Positions 8,730 through 19,051 are shown, counted from the first letter of the stretch. The stretch is 23,392 bases of DNA from an uncultured bacterium (GCA_964546365.1 CAZJJR010000074.1:1-23392), one strand, 5' to 3'. Notes: a model not told the origin generated them from the sequence alone. Numbers and translations are program-made.

Positions 8730-11084
8730 GTGGCGTACAGACCTGAAGGTGCAAAGCTATTCGGAGCTGCAATCAAGTATTTACTAGATAAAAAAGGGCT
8801 GAGTCAGCGGAAGTTTGCAGAGCAAGCAGGCTTGGAGACTGGCTACGTTAGCAAGCTGGTTAATGGTGAGATTTCAGAACCAAGGCAGGAAAATCGCAGT
8901 AAAATTGCACAAGGCTTGGGGGTAACAGAGCAGCAGCTACAAGAGTTAGTCGTTCAGTACATTGAAGGGAAGAGAGAGACTGACGGGGGTAGTCCTAATT
9001 CTGGTGAGATCGCTTCCACTACCATCACCCCTAATACCCCATCCACCAACTCGAATTTTGTAGGCAGGGAAAAGGCGATCGCAGATCTCAACAACCTGAT
9101 TCAACAAGGTGCAAAAGCCATTGTCATCCAAGCAGCAGGCGGTGTTGGTAAAACTACCTTGGCATGGGAATATCTCAAAACTCAAGGGTTTGACTTGGTT
9201 CTCGACCTCCCAATGGCAAAGGTGAAAGAGAACATTTCTGCTGTTGAGGGTGTGATTGAAGGATCTGCTGTCGAGGATGTAATTGAAGGATGGCTGAAGT
9301 ATGACTTTCAAGAGGAATCAGGGCGAGAGTTTAGGGAAATGCTGAGGCGACTAAAGCGGCAACTCCAAACTCGTAAAGTTGGGGTATTGATTGATAACTT
9401 AGAACCAGCGCTGGATAAACAATGCAGGTTTATTGAACCCCATCGTTGCTATTATGTGGAACTGTTGCGAGTTTTGGCTGATCCAACGGTACAGTCTGTC
9501 ACGCTGATTACCAGCCGCGATCGCCTCTGTGACGATGATGTAAATGTAGAGCATTATCCGTTATCCGGATTAGATGAGCAAGCATGGCAACAATTTTTTA
9601 GCAGTCGCAATATCAATATACATACTCCCACTCTTAAGGCGATGCACAACGCTTATGGAGGCAATGCCAAAGCAATGGATATTTTCTGCGGTGCAATCCG
9701 ACAAGAGTTTGATGGAGATATGGCGGCTTATTGGCGGGAAAATAGCGCGGATCTGTTGGTGAAACCAGATTTAAAAAATTTAGTGACCAATCAGTTCAAT
9801 CGTCTGCAAGAAATTGATTTTCAAGCCTATCAACTCCTCTGTCGTTTGGGATGCTATCGCTATCAGGATGTGCCGACTGTTTCTACTCAAGGACTGTTGT
9901 GTTTGCTGTGGGATGTCGAAGAAGCGCGGCCTAGAAGAATTATTGAATCGTTGCGAAATCGCTCTTTAGTAGAGTTTAAAAAGGGAGAATACTGGCTGCA
10001 TCCAATGATTCGGGAAGAAGCGATCGGACGGTTGAGAGCAAGTGATGATTGGGAGAATACGAACCGCAAATCCGCCGAGTTTTGGGCAGCAAGTATCGAA
10101 ATAATTGAAACTGTAAAAGATGCTCTGACAGCTTTAGAGGCTTATTATCACTATGTAGAGATTGATGATTTTGAGTTTGCTGGTAGTGTTATTGTTAAAG
10201 ATAGAAGTAACAAATGGGAAAAAGATGAATGTCTTGGTATAGCATCTTATAGACTGGGTTTATTACAAAAAATGATTTTCGCAATAAATCGAATAGTAAA
10301 CAAGCTTAATTCTAGCTACAACCTGGGAAGACTTTATAATATTTTGGGAGATCTTTACTGGCTAACAGGCTCTTTTACGAAGAGTATTGAATCTCACCAA
10401 AAATCAGAAGAGTTCGCAGTTATCTTCAAACAAAAAAGTCTTGAAGTCGTTGCTTCTTTTAATATAGGTCTTTGCAAAATAGATTTATTAGAAGTTAACC
10501 AAGCGGTAGAGTTGTTTGAAAAAGTTATCTCACTTGCTGAAAATACAGAATGCCATAGATATGCGATACAGTCCTGGTATTGCCTAGCATTTTTAAAGTC
10601 ATGCTTAGGTTTGAGGCAGGAAGCACTTTACTTTGCAAATAAGAGTTACAATGAACTCCCAACAGTAAAGTGGAGTGCATGGGCTAAAGGATATAGTTTC
10701 TTGTTTTTAGGTCAGACCTACAATAATTTAAGAGAAGCTGAAAAGTCTATTGAAATGTACAATAAAGCTATTCAATTTGCTGAAGAAAGTCACTACACTC
10801 AGGTAAGAGCAAAAGCTCTTACTGGCATAGCAGAGCTATGCCGAAAACAGGGGGATTTAGAAACCGCAATACCAAATCATTTAAAATCAATAGAACTTCT
10901 AGATAAAATCGGCGCTAAATGCGACCTTGCAGAAGCTTACTACCAACTAGGATTAACTTATCAAAAGATAGGTGATACTGAAAAAAGTCAGGATAATTTT
11001 GATAAAGCAATTCAACTATTCAGTGAAATGGAAGCACCCAAGCAAGTTAAGAAAGTGCGACGGGCGATGGAAAATGGGGGATAA
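8730..11084 (+). CDS. STAND-class signalling NTPase: N-terminal XRE-type HTH, NB-ARC (AP-ATPase) domain, C-terminal TPR repeats. GTG start.
   Basis: It is 784 aa. HTH: LSQRKFAEQAGLETGYVSKLVNGE. Low-complexity S/T/N/P linker. Walker A: VIQAAGGVGKTTLAWEY. Walker B: KVGVLIDNLE. RNBS-B-like: VTLITSRDR. C-terminal TPR-like helical repeats, e.g. LAEAYYQLGLTYQKIGDTEKSQDNFDKAIQLFSE. An in-frame TGA lies upstream of the GTG, so the start is at GTG 8730 or at a downstream ATG. Confidence 0.85.
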   Translation: MAYRPEGAKLFGAAIKYLLDKKGLSQRKFAEQAGLETGYVSKLVNGEISEPRQENRSKIAQGLGVTEQQLQELVVQYIEGKRETDGGSPNSGEIASTTITPNTPSTNSNFVGREKAIADLNNLIQQGAKAIVIQAAGGVGKTTLAWEYLKTQGFDLVLDLPMAKVKENISAVEGVIEGSAVEDVIEGWLKYDFQEESGREFREMLRRLKRQLQTRKVGVLIDNLEPALDKQCRFIEPHRCYYVELLRVLADPTVQSVTLITSRDRLCDDDVNVEHYPLSGLDEQAWQQFFSSRNINIHTPTLKAMHNAYGGNAKAMDIFCGAIRQEFDGDMAAYWRENSADLLVKPDLKNLVTNQFNRLQEIDFQAYQLLCRLGCYRYQDVPTVSTQGLLCLLWDVEEARPRRIIESLRNRSLVEFKKGEYWLHPMIREEAIGRLRASDDWENTNRKSAEFWAASIEIIETVKDALTALEAYYHYVEIDDFEFAGSVIVKDRSNKWEKDECLGIASYRLGLLQKMIFAINRIVNKLNSSYNLGRLYNILGDLYWLTGSFTKSIESHQKSEEFAVIFKQKSLEVVASFNIGLCKIDLLEVNQAVELFEKVISLAENTECHRYAIQSWYCLAFLKSCLGLRQEALYFANKSYNELPTVKWSAWAKGYSFLFLGQTYNNLREAEKSIEMYNKAIQFAEESHYTQVRAKALTGIAELCRKQGDLETAIPNHLKSIELLDKIGAKCDLAEAYYQLGLTYQKIGDTEKSQDNFDKAIQLFSEMEAPKQVKKVRRAMENGG

Positions 11085-11532: not shown

Positions 11533-14214
11533 ATGGATATGAATACAACCGATCGCAAATTGGAAAATCAAACTGAAATCTCCGGAAGTTCTAGTGGAGT
11601 AATTCGTCTCAAACCTCAACAATTCATTCACGTTTTAGATAACAATACTGGCGTTACTAGACTGGAAGTTGGCCCTCAAACGATTACTTTACGCGATCAC
11701 GAACGGTTAATATTGAAACCGGAACCGATGATTGTCGTACCGCCTCGATACTATTGCATCATTGAAAATCCCGTGCTTCGCGATGAAGATGGTAATCCGA
11801 TTGTTGACGAACACGGACAAATCAAACTTCGTTACGGCGATGCAGAAATTCGCTTTGCACAAGAACCTTTTCCCCTTTATCCCGGTGAAGAACTGGCAGG
11901 GGAAATCACGCAACTGCAAGTTGTGGAAAGAAATCAAGCACTACGTCTGAGAGCAATTCGCGATTTTGCCGATGCAATTACAGTTACGGTAGATGGAGAA
12001 AGCGAAACTCAAACTATCAACCGTTTAGCTGGAGATGAATGGTTATTTGAAGGGCCAGGAACTTATATTCCTCGCATTCAAGTGGAAGTTTTAGAGATAA
12101 TTCCTGCCAGAGTAATTAAACCAAATCAAGCTTTAAGATTAGTGGCAAGGCAGAATTGCATCGACCGTCAAGGTAATAGAAGAAGATCGGGTGAAGAATG
12201 GTTGGTGAGGGAAGAAGGTGCTTATTTACCAGGAGTTGATGAAGAGGTTGTTGGCATAATTAATGCTTACGTTTTAACTGAAAAGAAAGCATTGCATCTA
12301 AGAGCAAAACGCACTTTTAACGATGTTTTCGGTCGGCAACGTAAAGCAGGTGATGAATGGTTAGTTACCTTTGAAGATGCAGAAATCCACATTCCCGATG
12401 TTTATGAAGAGGTGGTGGGAGAAGTAAAAATTACCACTTTGGGCGACCGAGAATGGTGCATTGTTCTCAACCCAATTGATGAAGATGGTAAACCGCAATT
12501 GGGAATGCAAGAGGTGAGACAGGGGAGAATTTCGTTTTTTTTGCATCCAGGTGAATCGCTGGAAAACGGCATTCAAAAAGTTTATGTTTTGGGAGAACAG
12601 GAAGCACTTTTGCTGAAAGCTAAAGAAGCTTTTAGTGAGGGTGAAGGTGATAATTTAATCGAACGACAACCAGGGGATATGTGGATGATTGCAGGGCCAA
12701 GAGATTATATCCCGCCTGTAGAAGTAGAAGTAATCGAGAAACGTCAAGCAATTCCTCTTGATAAGAATGAAGGAATTTATATTAGGGATATTCAGACGGG
12801 CGAACTGAAGGTTGTCAGTGGGCCTCAAGCTTATATGCTCAGTCCTTATGAAGAACTTTGGGAAAAAGAACTGCCGCCAGTTGTGGAAGAACTTTTAGCG
12901 CTAAAAAATGACCCGGTTTCCGAACGGGGTCGGCATCATTTTACCAAAGGAGAGCGCCAAAATCAAACATTAGAAATTTCCGCAAATTATCAGGCAACAA
13001 GCGAACGAGATAAGACTAGAGCAGTAGTTTTTCACGTTCCGCAAAATGCCGCCGTGCAAATACATGATTATAAGGAAAGAACGGCGCGAACTGTATTTGG
13101 GCCAGACTTAGTAATGCTGGGGCCAGATGAAGCTTTTACGGTGTTGAGTTTATCCGGTAGCGTACCGAAAAGACCTCATGTAATCAAGTCTTTAGCTTTA
13201 TTATTAGGGCCAGATTTCATGACCGATTTGTTTACTGTCGAAACATCAGATCATGCCCGACTTCAGTTGCGTTTGTCTTATAATTGGTATTTTGATGTTA
13301 GTAGACATGACGAACAAGCGGCGGCAAAACTTTTTCAAGTACCTGATTTTGTAGATACTGCTTGTAAGGCGATCGCATCTCGCGTGCGGGGTGCGGTAGC
13401 CAGCGTAAAATTTGACGAATTTCACCGCAATTCGGCGCGGATTATTCGCACTGCTGTCTTCGGTACGGATGCTGAAGGTCGCGTGGGTGAAGAATTCCGT
13501 TTTAGAACCAATAATTTGGTGATTTTCAATGTTGATATTCAATCAGTAGAACCAGTAGATGAGGAAACTTTAAAAAGTTTGCAAAAGTCAGTACAAATTG
13601 CCATTCAAATTACTACCGATGCTCAAGAAGCTGCTGCCAGACATGATGCTGAACGAATCGAACAAGAAGCAAAATCACGATTAGAAAGGCAGGCAATCGT
13701 CGATAAAGGTGCGGCAGAAGGAGAACGGAGAAATTTGCTGGAGTTGCAAGCAGAAAACTCTGCGATCGAAACTACGGGTAAAGCCACCGCAGAAGCCAGA
13801 GCAAAAGCAGAAGCCGCCAGAATTGAAGGGCAATTAGCTGTTAATTTAGCTCAACAAGAAGCTGAAGCGGCGAGAATTCGTTACGAAGCTGAATTGGCTC
13901 AATTAAGATCTAAACAGGAAGCTGAATTAGCTCATCAACAAGCACTAATTGCTTTGGAAATTGAAAAAGCACAGCGCATGGCGGAAATTACCAGTACAGA
14001 ATTCAGGCAAAAAGTGGAAGCGATCGGCCCAGAAACCTTGCAAGCAATGGCGCAAGCTGGCCCGGAAATGCAGGCGAGACTTTTGCAATCTCTTGGTCTA
14101 CAAAGCGTATTAATTACTGATGGTAGAAGTCCGATCAATCTATTTAGTACTGCTCAGGGTTTGATAAGTCCAATTGCTGCTGACAGTGCTCAGTTACCAA
14201 AAGGCGATCGCTAA
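11533..14214 (+). CDS. mvp: Major vault protein (MVP) homolog, full length. It has MVP repeat domains, an SPFH-like shoulder, a cap-helix coiled coil and a cap-ring.
   Basis: It is 893 aa and collinear with human MVP from memory. [17 protein letters not shown] corresponds to [33 protein letters not shown] is identical. NQALRLRA and [12 protein letters not shown] correspond to [10 protein letters not shown] and [28 protein letters not shown] corresponds to [56 protein letters not shown] corresponds to [63 protein letters not shown] and PINLF are conserved. HIP1 GCGATCGC lies inside the gene at ~13369 and ~14203. There are no introns. Confidence 0.9.
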   Translation: [893 protein letters not shown]

Positions 14215-14245
14215 CTAATATAGGTTCCATTTATAAGCTAATTAT

Positions 14246-14285
14246 AAATAGTTGTAGAAATGATTTCCGGTTTCTACAACTATTT
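14246..14285 (+). terminator. Rho-independent terminator candidate downstream of mvp: AAATAGTTGTAGAAA, a 10-nt loop, TTTCTACAACTATTT, then a T-rich tail.
   Basis: Perfect 15-bp inverted repeat, 32 bp after the mvp stop. It is followed by AATTTATTGCTTTAT. Confidence 0.6.
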
Positions 14286-14338
14286 AATTTATTGCTTTAT
14301 AAGCAAACTGAGACGTTATAATAATCGTACCTAAATAG

Positions 14339-14668
14339 ATGAAAAAAGCAATGACTCATACCAAACCAAATCGCCCCCGTCGTCGAGGCAGGTTATTTCC
14401 TGAATACACGATTCCACCAGAAGAGTTAGCTAGACGCCAAGCTGAGAAAGAAGCGCGTTCTCAACGTTATCGCGAAGTTTTTGGACAAATTAGCCCTGAA
14501 TTAATAGAAAACCATTACAATTGGTTTATTGCGATCGAGCCAAAAAGCGGTGATTATTTTATCGATCCTGATGAGGAAGTAGCTGTTCAAAAAGCACGGC
14601 AAAAGTACCCTCATGGTATGATTGGCATCATGCGTTTAAATGAGACAGGAGCCTGTGGAATGATATGA
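14339..14668 (+). CDS. Hypothetical 109-aa protein with a strongly basic N-terminus. It is translationally coupled to the downstream aspartic protease.
   Basis: Track ORF: MKKAMTHTKPNRPRRRGRLFPEYTIPPEELARRQAEKEARSQRYREVF... The stop TGA overlaps the next start (ATGA at 14665-14668). Confidence 0.5.
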   Translation: MKKAMTHTKPNRPRRRGRLFPEYTIPPEELARRQAEKEARSQRYREVFGQISPELIENHYNWFIAIEPKSGDYFIDPDEEVAVQKARQKYPHGMIGIMRLNETGACGMI

Positions 14669-15033
14669 TTTCAGGCAGCTTCGGTGAAATTGGAGAGTTA
14701 TTTTTTGAAATAGATTTAATTGCTGCCGATGGAGAAAGATTCGCGATCGAAGTGCTACTAGATACGGGGTTTACAACAGGTTGGTTAGCACTTGACACTC
14801 AAGATGCTCAAAGTTTAGGGTGGTCTAAAATTGAAAGTGAACGAGAGATGCAAACAGCAAGAAGTAAAGAGTTTTTTGATATTTATGAAGGAAGAGTTGT
14901 CATTGATGAACAGGAGTATATTATTCCGGTTTTAGCTGGTGCGGGAATTCCGGAATCTTTATTAGGTTTGCAATGGTTGAAAATGATGCCGCTCATGGTA
15001 AATTATGCAGCAGGCGTGTTGACTTTGGGGTGA
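14665..15033 (+). CDS. Retropepsin-like (clan AA) aspartic protease, single domain, 122 aa.
   Basis: Catalytic triad LLDTGFT (D-T-G). The length and hydrophobic pattern are typical of homodimeric retroviral-type pepsins, including a C-terminal IIPVLAGAGIPESLLGLQWL flap/dimer region. Confidence 0.6.
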   Translation: MISGSFGEIGELFFEIDLIAADGERFAIEVLLDTGFTTGWLALDTQDAQSLGWSKIESEREMQTARSKEFFDIYEGRVVIDEQEYIIPVLAGAGIPESLLGLQWLKMMPLMVNYAAGVLTLG

Positions 15034-15166
15034 ATTGGGAAATGCGGTATGCCTACGGCACGCTACGCAATCGCACAAGACAATAGATTGCACATCCACG
15101 TGTTAATATGAAATTTGAGATATTGTAATTATTATAAAATAGCTACGTACTTATTACTAAATACTT

Positions 15167-16085: not shown

Positions 16086-17333
16086 CTAATTAGAAATTGG
16101 CACCCCTCTAATTGCACCAGTTTCCGGAACGTAAATATCTAAAGAATTCACATTTGGCGGTACTCTCAACCAAACATAAGCATCTACCGAAGCATCTGGG
16201 CGAATTTGCGCTAAAGAAACATTGCCAGTTGAATGTTCGCCAGGATTTACCGCTTTAAAAGTTTCGCTAGTAACTGGATTTCTGGCAGTTGTTTCGCCAA
16301 CATCGATAATATTATTTGCAGGGATTTCATTGGCGAAACGACGAATTCGCATCTGCACGTTTACGATGTCCCGATTACCAGTTTGGGGGTCTACAATACG
16401 TTTAGCTGAGAGTAAATCTACTCGTGCTTTATTGCCATAAGCTAACTGTTTAAATGCGCCGGGTTGAAATTCTACATTGATTTTTGGTGTTGGTGCGGGT
16501 GTACTGGTAACTGGAGTTGCTGTTTGTGAAACGGTAGGATTTTTGCTTTGTTCGGTTACGGTTGTGCTGGGAGTTGGGGAAGGTGCAGGCGTGGAATTTT
16601 TGCTTTCTCGAGTGGGATTTGAATTTGGAATATTTGGTAGTACGGGGGTTGGGTTAACACCACTAGAAAGATTATTTTCTGCACTATTTCCTAATTTTGG
16701 GTTAGAAATTAGGACGTTTTTAAATGTACCTGTATCTTTGATTAAAATATCGATAGAATTAACCCGTGGCGGTACATTTAGTGTAACGTAACCGTCGGTG
16801 GTTTGATTGGGAGGTAAATTAAATAGAAAAATGGGGCCAGATGATTGTTGAATAGGATCTACAGCTTGGTAAGTTTCGTTAGTTAGTGGATTTCGCGCCG
16901 TGGTAGCACCCACATTAATGATGTCACTACCGACAAATTCATCGGTCATGCGACGCACTCGCATTTGCACGTTTACTTCATCAGGTTTGGCGGGATTGCG
17001 AGTAACTGAAAGTAATTCTACTTGAGCTTTATTCTCTAAAGCAGATTGGATATAAGGATTTTGAGGAGTTTCTTGGAGATTAGTTTCAGGAGATGGTGAA
17101 ACAGGTATGGGAGTAGATGGAACAGTAACAGTTTGATTTTGATTGGCTTGACGATTAAAAGGGTTAATTAGTTGCCCGGATTGCATCGCCCGATATAGTA
17201 AAAAGCCTGCTCCTCCGAAAATGAGGAGAACTAATACTGTCGCCGCGCCAGCTAAAAATGAGTTTACATTACTACCTTGACGCTTATGGTTGGTTTCTAC
17301 TGCCTTTTGTTTCTCTGGATTGTGCGTTTTCAT
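16086..17333 (-). CDS. Membrane-anchored hypothetical protein, 415 aa, with two tandem ~115-aa homologous domains separated by a Pro/Thr/Ser-rich linker.
   Basis: Single N-terminal TM: FLAGAATVLVLLIFGGAGFLLY. Repeat 1: ELLSVTRNP...VNVQMRVRRMTDEFVGSDIINVGATTARNPLTNETYQAVDP...YVTLNVPPRVNSIDILIKDTG. Repeat 2: DLLSAKRIVDP...VNVQMRIRRFANEIPANNIIDVGETTARNPVTSETFKAVNP...YVWLRVPPNVNSLDIYVPETG. The linker is PTPVLPNIPNSNPT...TPAPSPTPSTTVTEQ...TSTPAPTPK. Confidence 0.6.
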   Translation of the reverse strand: MKTHNPEKQKAVETNHKRQGSNVNSFLAGAATVLVLLIFGGAGFLLYRAMQSGQLINPFNRQANQNQTVTVPSTPIPVSPSPETNLQETPQNPYIQSALENKAQVELLSVTRNPAKPDEVNVQMRVRRMTDEFVGSDIINVGATTARNPLTNETYQAVDPIQQSSGPIFLFNLPPNQTTDGYVTLNVPPRVNSIDILIKDTGTFKNVLISNPKLGNSAENNLSSGVNPTPVLPNIPNSNPTRESKNSTPAPSPTPSTTVTEQSKNPTVSQTATPVTSTPAPTPKINVEFQPGAFKQLAYGNKARVDLLSAKRIVDPQTGNRDIVNVQMRIRRFANEIPANNIIDVGETTARNPVTSETFKAVNPGEHSTGNVSLAQIRPDASVDAYVWLRVPPNVNSLDIYVPETGAIRGVPISN

Positions 17334-17452: not shown

Positions 17453-19051
17453 TTGCAATATAAAAAAGCTATTAACATGAGTTATCTCAAGTTGGCGATG
17501 AATTTGGCAAAGATTACTGCATTTGGTAAACCAATTGGTTTGCTGGTGCTTATTTTAGGTTGTCAGTTGTGGGTAAAGCAACTGAGTGCAACAGCGCAAA
17601 CGTCGAAAGTTCCGATGCAAGAAGTTTTAGCGCCAACGCAAGGTGTTAAACAGGTAGACTCTTCCCAGAGTATTTGTCCTGCACAATTATCCGCAGCAAT
17701 TGATGCGATCGCTAATCGTCCCCAATTTAATCGCGCTCGTTGGGGTATTTTAATTCAATCATTGGCAACCGAACAAACTCTCTACAACCGGGATGCACAG
17801 CAATACTTTATACCAGCATCCAACACCAAGTTATTAACTACCGCCGCCGCTTTACGTCAGTTAGGTTCTCAATATCGCATTCGCACATCTGTTTATGGTA
17901 GCAATGGCGTTTTGCGAGTGGTGGGAAGAGGCGATCCCAGTTTAACTGATGCACAATTAAAAGATTTAGCGCAACAATTAAAGCAACAAGGAATCACCCA
18001 AGTAAAACAACTGATCGTACAAGATGATTATTTTCAATCGCCGATACTTCATCCTACTTGGGAATGGGAAGATGTGAATGCTGATTACGGCGCTCCCATC
18101 AATAGTTTAATTTTAAATCAAAATGTTTTATCCTTAACTTTATTACCACAAAGATTAGGTCAACCTTTACAATTTCGCTGGAACGATCCCTTTGCTGCAC
18201 TGCAATGGCAAGTGGAAAATAAGGCTGTTACCGCTCAACCAAAATCAGAAAATACTCTAGAAGTAGTAGGTTTTCTAGGCAAGCCAATTTTGCAAATTCG
18301 CGGTCAGTTAAGCGCTGATTCCGAACCGGAAAAAATTGATTTACCAGTACGCGATCCGGCAGAAAACTTTTTACAACATTTTCGTCAATCTTTGCAATTA
18401 GAAGGAATTACCGTTACTCAAGCAATAGTGGCATCTAGCAATCAAAAAACCGATGAACCAGAATTAGCATCAATTGAATCTCCCCCCTTATCCCAGTTAA
18501 TCGCTGATACCAATCAACCCAGTAATAATGTTTATGCCGAATCTTTATTACAAACGATCGGTGCAATCAAATTCGTTTGTAGTAAGGAGTTTAGTCCTAA
18601 CTGCGATGAAGGAAAACTAACAACTACAGAAAAAGGATTAGCAGTTTTAAAAGCAACTTTAACTGATGTGGGAGTCGATCCGCAAAGTTATGTAATTAAA
18701 GATGGTTCGGGATTATCTCGACATAATTTAATAAGTCCGATCGCATTAGTTCAATTATTAAAAGGAATGTCCCAATTGCCGGAAGCAGAAATTTATCGAA
18801 CTTCCTTACCTGTAGCTGGAGTTAGCGGTACTTTGAGAAATCGATTTAAGGAGACACCAGCACAGACGATCGTGCAAGCAAAAACTGGTACGATGACAGG
18901 AGTTTCTTCTCTATCTGGATATGTAGATGCACCTAATTATGAAAGATTGGTGTTTAGTATTATTGTGAATCAATCCGATCGATCTGCAAGGATTGTTAGG
19001 GAAGGAATAGATGAGATTGTGCTGTTATTAACTCGTTTGCGTCGTTGTTAA
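17453..19051 (+). CDS. dacB: D-alanyl-D-alanine carboxypeptidase/endopeptidase (PBP4, peptidase S13).
   Basis: It is 532 aa with a signal/TM at the N-terminus. The SxxK active-site motif (IPASNTKLLTTAAAL), a DGSGLSRHN region and the KTG motif (AKTGTMTGVSSLSGY) are in PBP4 order. The start may be the downstream ATG at 17477 (MSYLKLAMNL...). Confidence 0.85.
   Translation: MQYKKAINMSYLKLAMNLAKITAFGKPIGLLVLILGCQLWVKQLSATAQTSKVPMQEVLAPTQGVKQVDSSQSICPAQLSAAIDAIANRPQFNRARWGILIQSLATEQTLYNRDAQQYFIPASNTKLLTTAAALRQLGSQYRIRTSVYGSNGVLRVVGRGDPSLTDAQLKDLAQQLKQQGITQVKQLIVQDDYFQSPILHPTWEWEDVNADYGAPINSLILNQNVLSLTLLPQRLGQPLQFRWNDPFAALQWQVENKAVTAQPKSENTLEVVGFLGKPILQIRGQLSADSEPEKIDLPVRDPAENFLQHFRQSLQLEGITVTQAIVASSNQKTDEPELASIESPPLSQLIADTNQPSNNVYAESLLQTIGAIKFVCSKEFSPNCDEGKLTTTEKGLAVLKATLTDVGVDPQSYVIKDGSGLSRHNLISPIALVQLLKGMSQLPEAEIYRTSLPVAGVSGTLRNRFKETPAQTIVQAKTGTMTGVSSLSGYVDAPNYERLVFSIIVNQSDRSARIVREGIDEIVLLLTRLRRC

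Follow-up and report, generated by a model that had tools for sequence, protein, structure and literature searches.

What does a bacterium do with a small aspartic protease of the retroviral type that is encoded together with a partner of its own? The question is raised by two overlapping genes in a DNA stretch of 23,392 nucleotides from an uncultured bacterium (GCA_964546365.1, CAZJJR010000074.1:1-23392); this whole stretch is here called the window. The first open reading frame (ORF1) encodes a small protein with a basic N-terminal tail, the second (ORF2) a retropepsin-like aspartic protease. In the initial annotation they were described as a translationally coupled pair that recalls either a retroviral Gag-Pro arrangement or a protease with a dedicated substrate or partner. 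The cassette is autonomous and horizontally mobile: it occurs in multiple copies, in tandem, independently of its context and on plasmids. What it does can be said with less certainty. We tentatively read it as an addiction or stress module resembling toxin-antitoxin (TA) systems, with the protease as the toxic component. The basic layout is as follows.

14339–14668, plus strand: ORF1 as read mechanically, 109 amino acids (aa)
14351–14668, plus strand: ORF1, the partner protein, 105 aa, read from the second methionine (MTHTKPNRP...)
14665–15033, plus strand: ORF2, the retropepsin-like aspartic protease, 122 aa
14665–14668, plus strand: ATGA stop-start overlap of 4 nucleotides (translational coupling)

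Two constrained genes that evolve as a unit

Related loci were sought in one genome per GTDB species. The scan returned 79 loci, all of them cyanobacterial, which comprise 86 cassettes from 65 assemblies. An ORF1 homolog is found directly upstream of ORF2 in 79 of the 79 loci. The ATGA overlap, confirmed at 14665–14668 in the window, has a counterpart of the same type in 81 of the 86 cassettes, and the exact octamer ATATGATT is present in 67. Databases contain 288 homologs of ORF1 and 676 of ORF2. The best matches are all cyanobacterial and are annotated as “hypothetical protein” and “aspartyl protease”, respectively; JGI names the ORF2 homologs “predicted aspartyl protease”. The median ratios of nonsynonymous to synonymous substitution rates (dN/dS) in the intact cassettes, 0.18 for ORF1 and 0.16 for ORF2 at a dS of about 1, show that both genes are under purifying selection. 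In view of the homolog counts, these ratios, a DTGFT motif without variation in 73 of 73 intact cassettes, the constant pairing and the conserved overlap, ORF1 and ORF2 are real, constrained genes, far beyond chance.

The two genes also co-evolve as a unit. Their pairwise distances correlate with r = 0.77, while the maximum reached by permutation was 0.11. Most likely, they are also co-transcribed.

At least two loci are present in ten of the assemblies, and in one metagenome-assembled genome (MAG) six cassettes are distributed over five loci. Tandem arrays consist of up to three copies, the paralogs having diverged to 51–95% identity. Argonema antarcticum has two tandem arrays, one of three copies and one of two, and in the two-copy array a protease is frameshifted. 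The idea of a protease with a dedicated partner is thus borne out by a pairing that is conserved in other cyanobacteria and multiplied within genomes, from one to at least five loci per genome.

As to the exact start of ORF1, the initial annotation needs a correction. A reading frame of 109 aa does exist, but the true ORF1 most likely starts at 14351 and has 105 aa, because nearly all of its 288 database homologs have this length and start at the second methionine, and because the leader alignment reveals no ATG at 14339 in close relatives: opposite the window's ATG they have leader sequences such as AATAAGC or AATAGAC.

The protease

The residues that define the enzyme are encoded at two sites of ORF2.

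14761–14769, plus strand: catalytic Asp33-Thr34-Gly35, codons GAT ACG GGG, within LLDTGFTTGW
14959–14979, plus strand: second retropepsin signature L-L-G-L-Q-W-L, residues 99–105, equivalent to the ILG/GRD region

D33, T34, G35 and F36 are conserved in all 73 intact cassettes and likewise in the 120 best database homologs, and the catalytic aspartate is preceded by two hydrophobic residues, L31 and L32. The stretch LLDTGFTTGW as a whole hardly varies. In the second signature, G101 and L105 are present in 73 of 73 cassettes; in the alignment LLGLQWL stands opposite LIGLDMLK of Ddi1, with whose protease domain the ORF2 family profile aligns from end to end, the motifs being in register. The predicted structure is the single-lobe beta-barrel of a retropepsin with flap hairpin and terminal strands, and its nearest structural relatives are APRc and the retroviral proteases. 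The original assignment to the stand-alone clan AA proteases with a DTG active site therefore stands, supported by the DTG and ILG-type motifs, the predicted fold and a sub-threshold match to TIGR03698.

This curated family (clan_AA_DTGF) is the best match of ORF2 (E 8e-10). Because the score, 39.0 bits, stays below the cut-off of 57.35, which a Chloroflexota homolog passes with 59.5 bits, ORF2 is, by its sequence, a divergent relative of TIGR03698, an outlying cyanobacterial subfamily rather than a core member. Matches to Pfam Asp_protease_2 (15 versus a cut-off of 24.3) and to TIGR02281 (E 0.0076) are marginal. With the “clan AA aspartic proteases, DTGF type” of COG5550/TIGR03698, also named “pSNCAPs”, ORF2 shares the size (about 120 aa), the D-T-G-F and a full-length profile alignment. 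The family is uncharacterised; “little is known” about it (PMC2642776).

ORF2 is acidic, with an isoelectric point of 4.05 and a net charge of −13 (family median −14). No hydrophobic stretch resembling a signal peptide was found at its N-terminus, and the protein is apparently free and cytoplasmic. A variant with D-T-A in place of D-T-G (WIDTAFNG) is seen in one partner-paired homolog (L095, 2249–2611).

The partner protein

ORF1 is best discussed in three parts.

14381–14404, plus strand: basic linear motif R-R-G-R-L-F-P-E, residues 11–18, with the Phe16-Pro17 codons at 14396–14401
14432–14659, plus strand: region common to the wider DUF5678-like partner family, residues 28–103, i.e., most of the helix and the alpha/beta domain
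14639–14665, plus strand: C-terminal tail N-E-T-G-x-C-G-x-I, residues 97–105

An AlphaFold2 model with a predicted local distance difference test (pLDDT) score of 82 suggests a disordered segment (residues 1–16), a long helix (23–55) and a beta-beta-alpha-beta domain (59–95), followed by a C-terminal tail of low pLDDT. The region of the basic motif also has low pLDDT. With a net charge of +4 to +5, this N-terminal tail is as basic as the initial annotation had it, and it is predicted to be disordered. Its motif is well kept in the cassettes: R14 in 70 of 73, F16 in 61 (Leu in 11), P17 in 68 and E18 in 53. For the cyanobacterial branch the tail motif reads R-R-G-R-[IL]-[FL]-P-E-x-T-I-P-P-E-E-L, the C-terminal motif R-[LI]-N-E-T-G-x-C-G-x-I. 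The C-terminal tail has the lowest dN of the protein (0.11, at a dS of about 1.0), and its G100 and C102 are found in 73 of 73 cassettes.

ORF1 itself has no sequence match in Pfam, NCBIfam or PDB, and neither the window protein nor any of 119 close homologs matches Pfam DUF5678 (PF18929). A profile search of 1.84 billion representatives, however, retrieved 262 relatives. The distant ones have 80–105 aa, lack the basic tail and share the motif G.FVAIEP.SGDYF.G...A..KAR.KYP...F..RIG..AA. Profile comparison (hhalign) of the ORF1 family with one such distant family, A3, yielded a probability of 99.8% over ORF1 residues 28–103. In A3, 39 of 114 members match DUF5678 at E ≤ 0.1, the best at E 7.5e-6, and one member (P0434) scores 25.1, above the gathering score of 23.2. 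Structure search (Foldseek) against viral models (BFVD) points the same way: the best matches are DUF5678 models of Pandoravirus (S4VV29, A0A2U7UG46, A0A2U7UD66), with probabilities of 0.85–1.0, though E values of only 0.05–0.25. ORF1 may thus be regarded, indirectly, as a divergent DUF5678-like protein, the link being transitive via family A3. Its helix and beta-beta-alpha-beta region would be homologous to that partly DUF5678-matching family; the basic N-terminal tail and the NETGxCGxI C-terminus are its own additions. We found no solved structure of DUF5678.

That the nearest viral models come from Pandoraviruses, giant viruses of amoebae, is an unexpected facet of the DUF5678 distribution. 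There are also chains of 183–214 aa with two tandem DUF5678-like partner domains each (P0356, P0357, P0371, P0377). Several assemblies share a frameshift that divides ORF1 at one and the same point, after about residue 45, where the helix ends (L005, 5686–6001 and 11079–11394; L032, 5686–6001), and separate database entries of 47–62 aa match N-terminal fragments of ORF1 (P0328, P0334, P0309). This division could reflect an error in sequencing, gene decay or a true variant in two pieces.

The pair beyond cyanobacteria, and its decay

The arrangement is not a cyanobacterial speciality. In Candidatus Syntrophoarchaeum, a Chloroflexota MAG and a KSB1 MAG the partner is followed by a D[TS]GF protease of 118–131 aa that matches TIGR03698 with E values from 1e-11 to 3e-16. 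The same order was seen in three of four further contexts, i.e., in six of the eight contexts sampled. Metagenomes were searched with the partner profile; 80 loci were found, of which 79 could be assessed. A protease homolog lies immediately downstream of the partner in 59 of these 79, and the remaining 20 include in-frame fusions of the partner with a protease remnant, tandem partners and true orphan partners.

In the Chloroflexota MAG, partner and protease reside inside a mur operon, between mraY and murD (L085, 2501–3149). Another Chloroflexota-type contig has two tandem partner paralogs directly 5' of murD, without a protease (L093, 1733–2255).

Cassettes also decay. The independent cassettes L100 (200–601), L101 (1974–2357), L137 (1326–1499) and L164 (1956–2402) have lost the catalytic core of their protease by deletion. 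In L100, L101 and L164 an in-frame fusion joins the partner to the final 30–40 protease residues; L137 has a separate ORF downstream that retains only N- and C-terminal remnants of the protease, without the DTG region. The reverse, a broken partner with an intact protease, is found in cyanobacterial cassettes (L028, L060).

Genomic context and mobility

The 115 nearest flanking ORFs of the related loci represent 89 different Pfam families, and there is no constant third gene. Genes of Uma2-family putative restriction endonucleases are the commonest neighbours, at 7 of 115; HigB, UPF0175, HEPN/MNT and PIN genes are also among them. One cyanobacterial cassette has HigB and DUF6972 genes in its vicinity; that of Syntrophoarchaeum is surrounded by HEPN/MNT and PIN genes and flanked by fragments of an epimerase gene. 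The latter situation may be described more closely: in L083 (2040–2438, 4946–5297) and L084 (1546–1944, 2665–3249) the gene in question, for an NAD-dependent epimerase, is present as two fragments with the cassette between them. In L083 the same interval also contains a PIN-domain gene and a small gene just 5' of the PIN gene. The Syntrophoarchaeum epimerase gene looks as if it had been split by inserted TA-like modules.

Homologs of ORF2 occur on 22 cyanobacterial plasmid records. MOBP plasmids of 34–39 kb, from Tolypothrix PCC 7601 and Nostoc sphaeroides, as well as a 159-kb plasmid of Nostoc, carry the pair next to parA and divergent from it. The intergenic distance between the two is about 210–260 nucleotides on three Nostocales plasmids (L090, 3572–5363; L091, 3620–5363; L181, 2624–4369), in two of which a site-specific integrase gene follows past the par genes. 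A site-specific or tyrosine recombinase gene stands beside the pair on the Tolypothrix PCC 7601 and Nostoc sphaeroides plasmids and on one further plasmid. This adjacency to parA suggests a shared maintenance module. On a Gloeothece plasmid the pair abuts a gene for an Rpn-family nuclease.

A phage origin of the pair was rejected, since 50,697 phage records and IMG/VR contained no homolog of ORF2. Assignment to a known defence or TA family was equally rejected, since neither window protein had a match in PADLOC or PHROG.

What the pair may do

The reading that we prefer, with some reserve, is that of a TA-like module for addiction or stress, whose acidic retropepsin, located in the cytoplasm, would be kept in check by the partner. 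Selfish behaviour of this kind is suggested by copy number, tandem arrays, random context, neighbouring TA genes, the insertion of one cassette into a mur operon, degenerate copies and the location in plasmid maintenance regions. Termination and reinitiation at the ATGA would provide ORF1 and ORF2 in fixed proportion. The effector would be the acidic ORF2 protease, active as a homodimer, and its unrestrained cleavage of cellular proteins would be harmful. Retropepsins of the HIV-1 protease type (from human immunodeficiency virus type 1) are indeed toxic when expressed in E. coli. ORF1 would bind and restrain the protease via the helix plus beta-beta-alpha-beta domain common to the whole family. 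In cyanobacteria, the RRGR[IL][FL]PE tail might in addition sit in the acidic cleft as substrate or pseudosubstrate; we consider this because Phe/Leu-Pro is a classic retropepsin scissile bond and because the charges of protease (about −14) and tail (+4 to +5) are complementary. Phe/Tyr-Pro bonds are cleaved by HIV-1 protease and similar retropepsins. The protease would finally be set free when the partner is lost or turned over. That ORF1 physically binds and inhibits the protease, that the protease is toxic and that the tail has the part outlined here is what we infer from these data.

Several observations weigh against such a module. The archaeal, Chloroflexota and KSB1 partners are devoid of the basic tail and the F-P motif, and the tail therefore cannot be the general neutralising element. 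The fold and family searches (Pfam, NCBIfam and fold comparison) detected no helix-turn-helix (HTH), ribbon-helix-helix, AbrB or Phd-like domain in ORF1, although its basic tail might bind DNA, and the lack of a PADLOC match has already been mentioned. The cyanobacterial cassettes keep 60–90% sequence conservation across orders, and the mur-operon position is common to two Chloroflexota-type contigs (L085, L093); both facts fit a useful cellular function as well. Decay, moreover, is not clearly asymmetric, as cassettes with deleted protease and intact partner and others with broken partner and intact protease both occur. A preferential loss of the toxin had been considered as a sign of toxicity, but this argument was dropped, and asymmetric decay is not claimed, because decay runs both ways and each sample is biased by the route of its discovery.

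Of course, the partner could also be the substrate. The protease would then cleave an ORF1 precursor, e.g., at Phe/Leu16-Pro17, to free the arginine-rich N-terminal peptide or to activate the DUF5678-like domain, and the product would be the active agent. An [FL]-P dipeptide kept in a disordered basic segment, an acidic protease, strict co-translation and database entries that divide ORF1 between an N-terminal fragment of about 47 aa and the C-terminal domain would all be in line with this maturation. We nevertheless consider it unlikely: partners outside cyanobacteria remain paired with a protease without having tail or F-P motif, conservation of ORF1 peaks in the domain and the C-terminal tail and leaves no variable “core peptide”, and modification or export genes are not among the neighbours. 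A still less probable view takes the pair for a housekeeping or regulatory protease with its adaptor, similar to RimB-RimK or Ddi1. It would serve the regulated proteolysis of particular cellular targets and not itself, and ORF1 would be a factor of specificity or localisation that possibly binds nucleic acids via its basic tail. The strong purifying selection on both genes, the conservation of the pair across phyla, the shared position upstream of murD in mur operons of two Chloroflexota-type contigs and the physiological roles of the characterised bacterial retropepsin-like enzymes (PMC11957791, PMC12239564) speak for it. A housekeeping enzyme, however, is hardly expected in one to at least five loci per genome, as tandem diverged paralogs, in an essentially random context, on plasmids beside parA and recombinase genes or as degenerate copies, and no RimK-like ATP-grasp gene or other constant partner gene was seen among the neighbours.

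Abortive infection is a special case of the preferred TA-like module, and we give this narrower anti-phage version equally little weight. Here the partner would sense the infection, or a phage factor would degrade or titrate it, whereupon the protease would kill or arrest the cell. Mobility and multiple copies are signatures also of defence genes, the neighbours include genes of Uma2-family nucleases and AAA_21/AbiEii-like and HEPN/MNT genes, and one homolog, from Chloroflexota, has weak PADLOC matches to “protease” and to PEPT_D, the aspartyl protease found in type III CRISPR (clustered regularly interspaced short palindromic repeats) operons of Sulfolobales. The window proteins, however, have no such match, and unrelated housekeeping families prevail among the neighbours counted. 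Least credible of all, and in fact close to negligible, is the relic of a retroelement in which a nucleic-acid-binding structural protein precedes its processing protease, the Gag-Pro resemblance that had struck the first observer. A basic N-terminus of ORF1 and a retropepsin fold encoded downstream are all that recalls it. ORF1 has neither a zinc knuckle (CCHC) nor a capsid- or nucleocapsid-like fold; its nearest relatives are DUF5678 proteins, and its viral Foldseek matches are not Gag-like. The 115 neighbouring ORFs comprise no reverse transcriptase and no integrase, flanking repeats resembling long terminal repeats are missing, the window neighbours are a major vault protein and a cytochrome b561, and the two ORFs are separate, joined by a stop-start overlap and not by the frameshift of a polyprotein. 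On the grounds of the missing Gag-like fold of ORF1 and of the absent retroelement genes and repeats, this interpretation was rejected.

Boundaries and surroundings of the cassette

14245–14286, plus strand: intrinsic terminator hairpin of the mvp gene, left boundary of the cassette, a perfect inverted repeat of 16–17 bp followed by a T-rich tract
14292–14322, plus strand: putative promoter region of the cassette, read from the sequence

The terminator just upstream, directly after which the initial annotation had placed the cassette, is real, as judged from its perfect hairpin and T-rich tract. The putative promoter would consist of the −10 element TATAAT at 14317–14322 and the candidate −35 element TTGCTT at 14292–14297, with a long spacer of 19 nucleotides; a promoter scan offered a weaker candidate at 14296–14325, which overlaps it. 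Most of the related cassettes have a (GA)TATAAT some 30–45 nucleotides 5' of the ORF1 start, followed by the leader motif T(T/A)(G/A)AATAG. On the 3' side of ORF2 neither a terminator nor a known RNA element was detected, and the fold of the 3' intergenic region has a z-score of 0.67. The sole Rfam match was at chance level and fell on the mvp hairpin. A GC-rich motif at 15051–15070 occurs once in the window and is absent from all related loci. Transposon-like boundaries were rejected, as no terminal direct or inverted repeats were found to flank the window cassette.

The gene upstream of the cassette (11533–14214, plus strand) encodes a full-length homolog of the major vault protein with 893 aa, comprising Vault repeats 1–4 and the shoulder domain (E 2e-68). 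That a cyanobacterium has a vault protein merits separate attention. Further upstream (8730–11084, plus strand) follows the gene of a 784-aa protein that resembles HTH-AAA-TPR regulators (TPR, tetratricopeptide repeat). Neither mvp nor the cytochrome b561 gene downstream of the cassette is linked to any of the 79 related loci; a functional link of the cassette to mvp was therefore rejected, and its position behind this gene is incidental.

On the minus strand, at 16086–17333, the window encodes a protein of 415 aa rich in Pro, Thr and Ser. It has an N-terminal hydrophobic segment, no Pfam match and a pair of internal repeats, each about 110 aa long (…VNVQMR[VI]RR…GxTTARNP[LV]T[NS]ET[YF][QK]AV[DN]P…). 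Among the neighbours of related cassettes, Peptidase_S13 was counted three times, and an S13 gene is also present in the window (17453–19051). Synteny of S13 was rejected, since the window S13 protein has no homolog in the 79 loci (tblastn, E ≤ 1e-10).

Relation to known systems

ApRick/APRc of Rickettsia is membrane-anchored and surface-exposed (PMC8649778), whereas ORF2 is free, apparently cytoplasmic, very acidic and provided with its own partner gene. Being free and having such a gene also distinguishes it from the proteases of equine infectious anaemia virus (EIAV), feline immunodeficiency virus (FIV) and HIV-1, which are cut from polyproteins. RimB (with RimK/RimA) and RloA of Pseudomonas are, like ORF2, bacterial retropepsin-like proteases from small operons with a dedicated protein partner, and the charge of their cleft governs the substrate (PMC11957791, PMC12239564). 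They, however, combine basic clefts for polyglutamate with an ATP-grasp ligase, RimK or RloC, while ORF2 is acidic, lacks an ATP-grasp neighbour, and is multi-copy and mobile. The family is also a different one; the TIGR02281 match of ORF2 is marginal.

The type II TA systems (VapBC, HigBA, HEPN-MNT) resemble the cassette in having two small co-oriented genes with a 4-nucleotide overlap, in multiple copies and with patchy distribution; like them, the cassette is found in variable contexts, is plasmid-borne and prone to decay, and is often placed among other TA genes. It differs in that ORF1 lacks the usual DNA-binding antitoxin domains. An aspartic protease in the role of the toxin is not known to us from any TA family. 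For the long helix or the tail of ORF1, a possible analogy is IA3, the inhibitor of yeast proteinase A, a small and partly disordered protein that fills the cleft of the aspartic protease as a helix. In the full-text literature we found no description of the pair, of a DUF5678 function, of a role of COG5550 or of aspartic-protease toxins, nor was an obligate DUF5678-like partner of the COG5550/TIGR03698 proteases found described.

Significance

Retropepsin-like proteases abound in bacteria, but to our knowledge only few of them have a known role (RimB, RloA, APRc, SpoIIGA), and none of them belongs to the COG5550/TIGR03698 branch. This branch now appears as one half of an obligate two-gene module, the other half being DUF5678-like. 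The module spans the distance from methane-cycling archaea to filamentous cyanobacteria, is amplified within genomes and resides in plasmid maintenance regions. It might even be the first member of a widespread and so far unrecognised class of archaeal and bacterial TA or abortive-infection systems, with a retropepsin as toxin, a DUF5678 protein as antidote and, in cyanobacteria, a Phe/Leu-Pro pseudosubstrate tail, although we hold this wider proposal to be doubtful. A protease toxin with a proteinaceous inhibitor or pseudosubstrate is, in any case, a concrete hypothesis that can be tested cheaply. If true, it would introduce proteolysis of this kind as a new toxin chemistry in TA and defence biology, and it would provide a function for DUF5678 as well as natural protein inhibitors of retropepsins. 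Abundant, regulated stand-alone retropepsins in prokaryotes would, finally, bear on the origin of Ddi1 and of the retroviral proteases.

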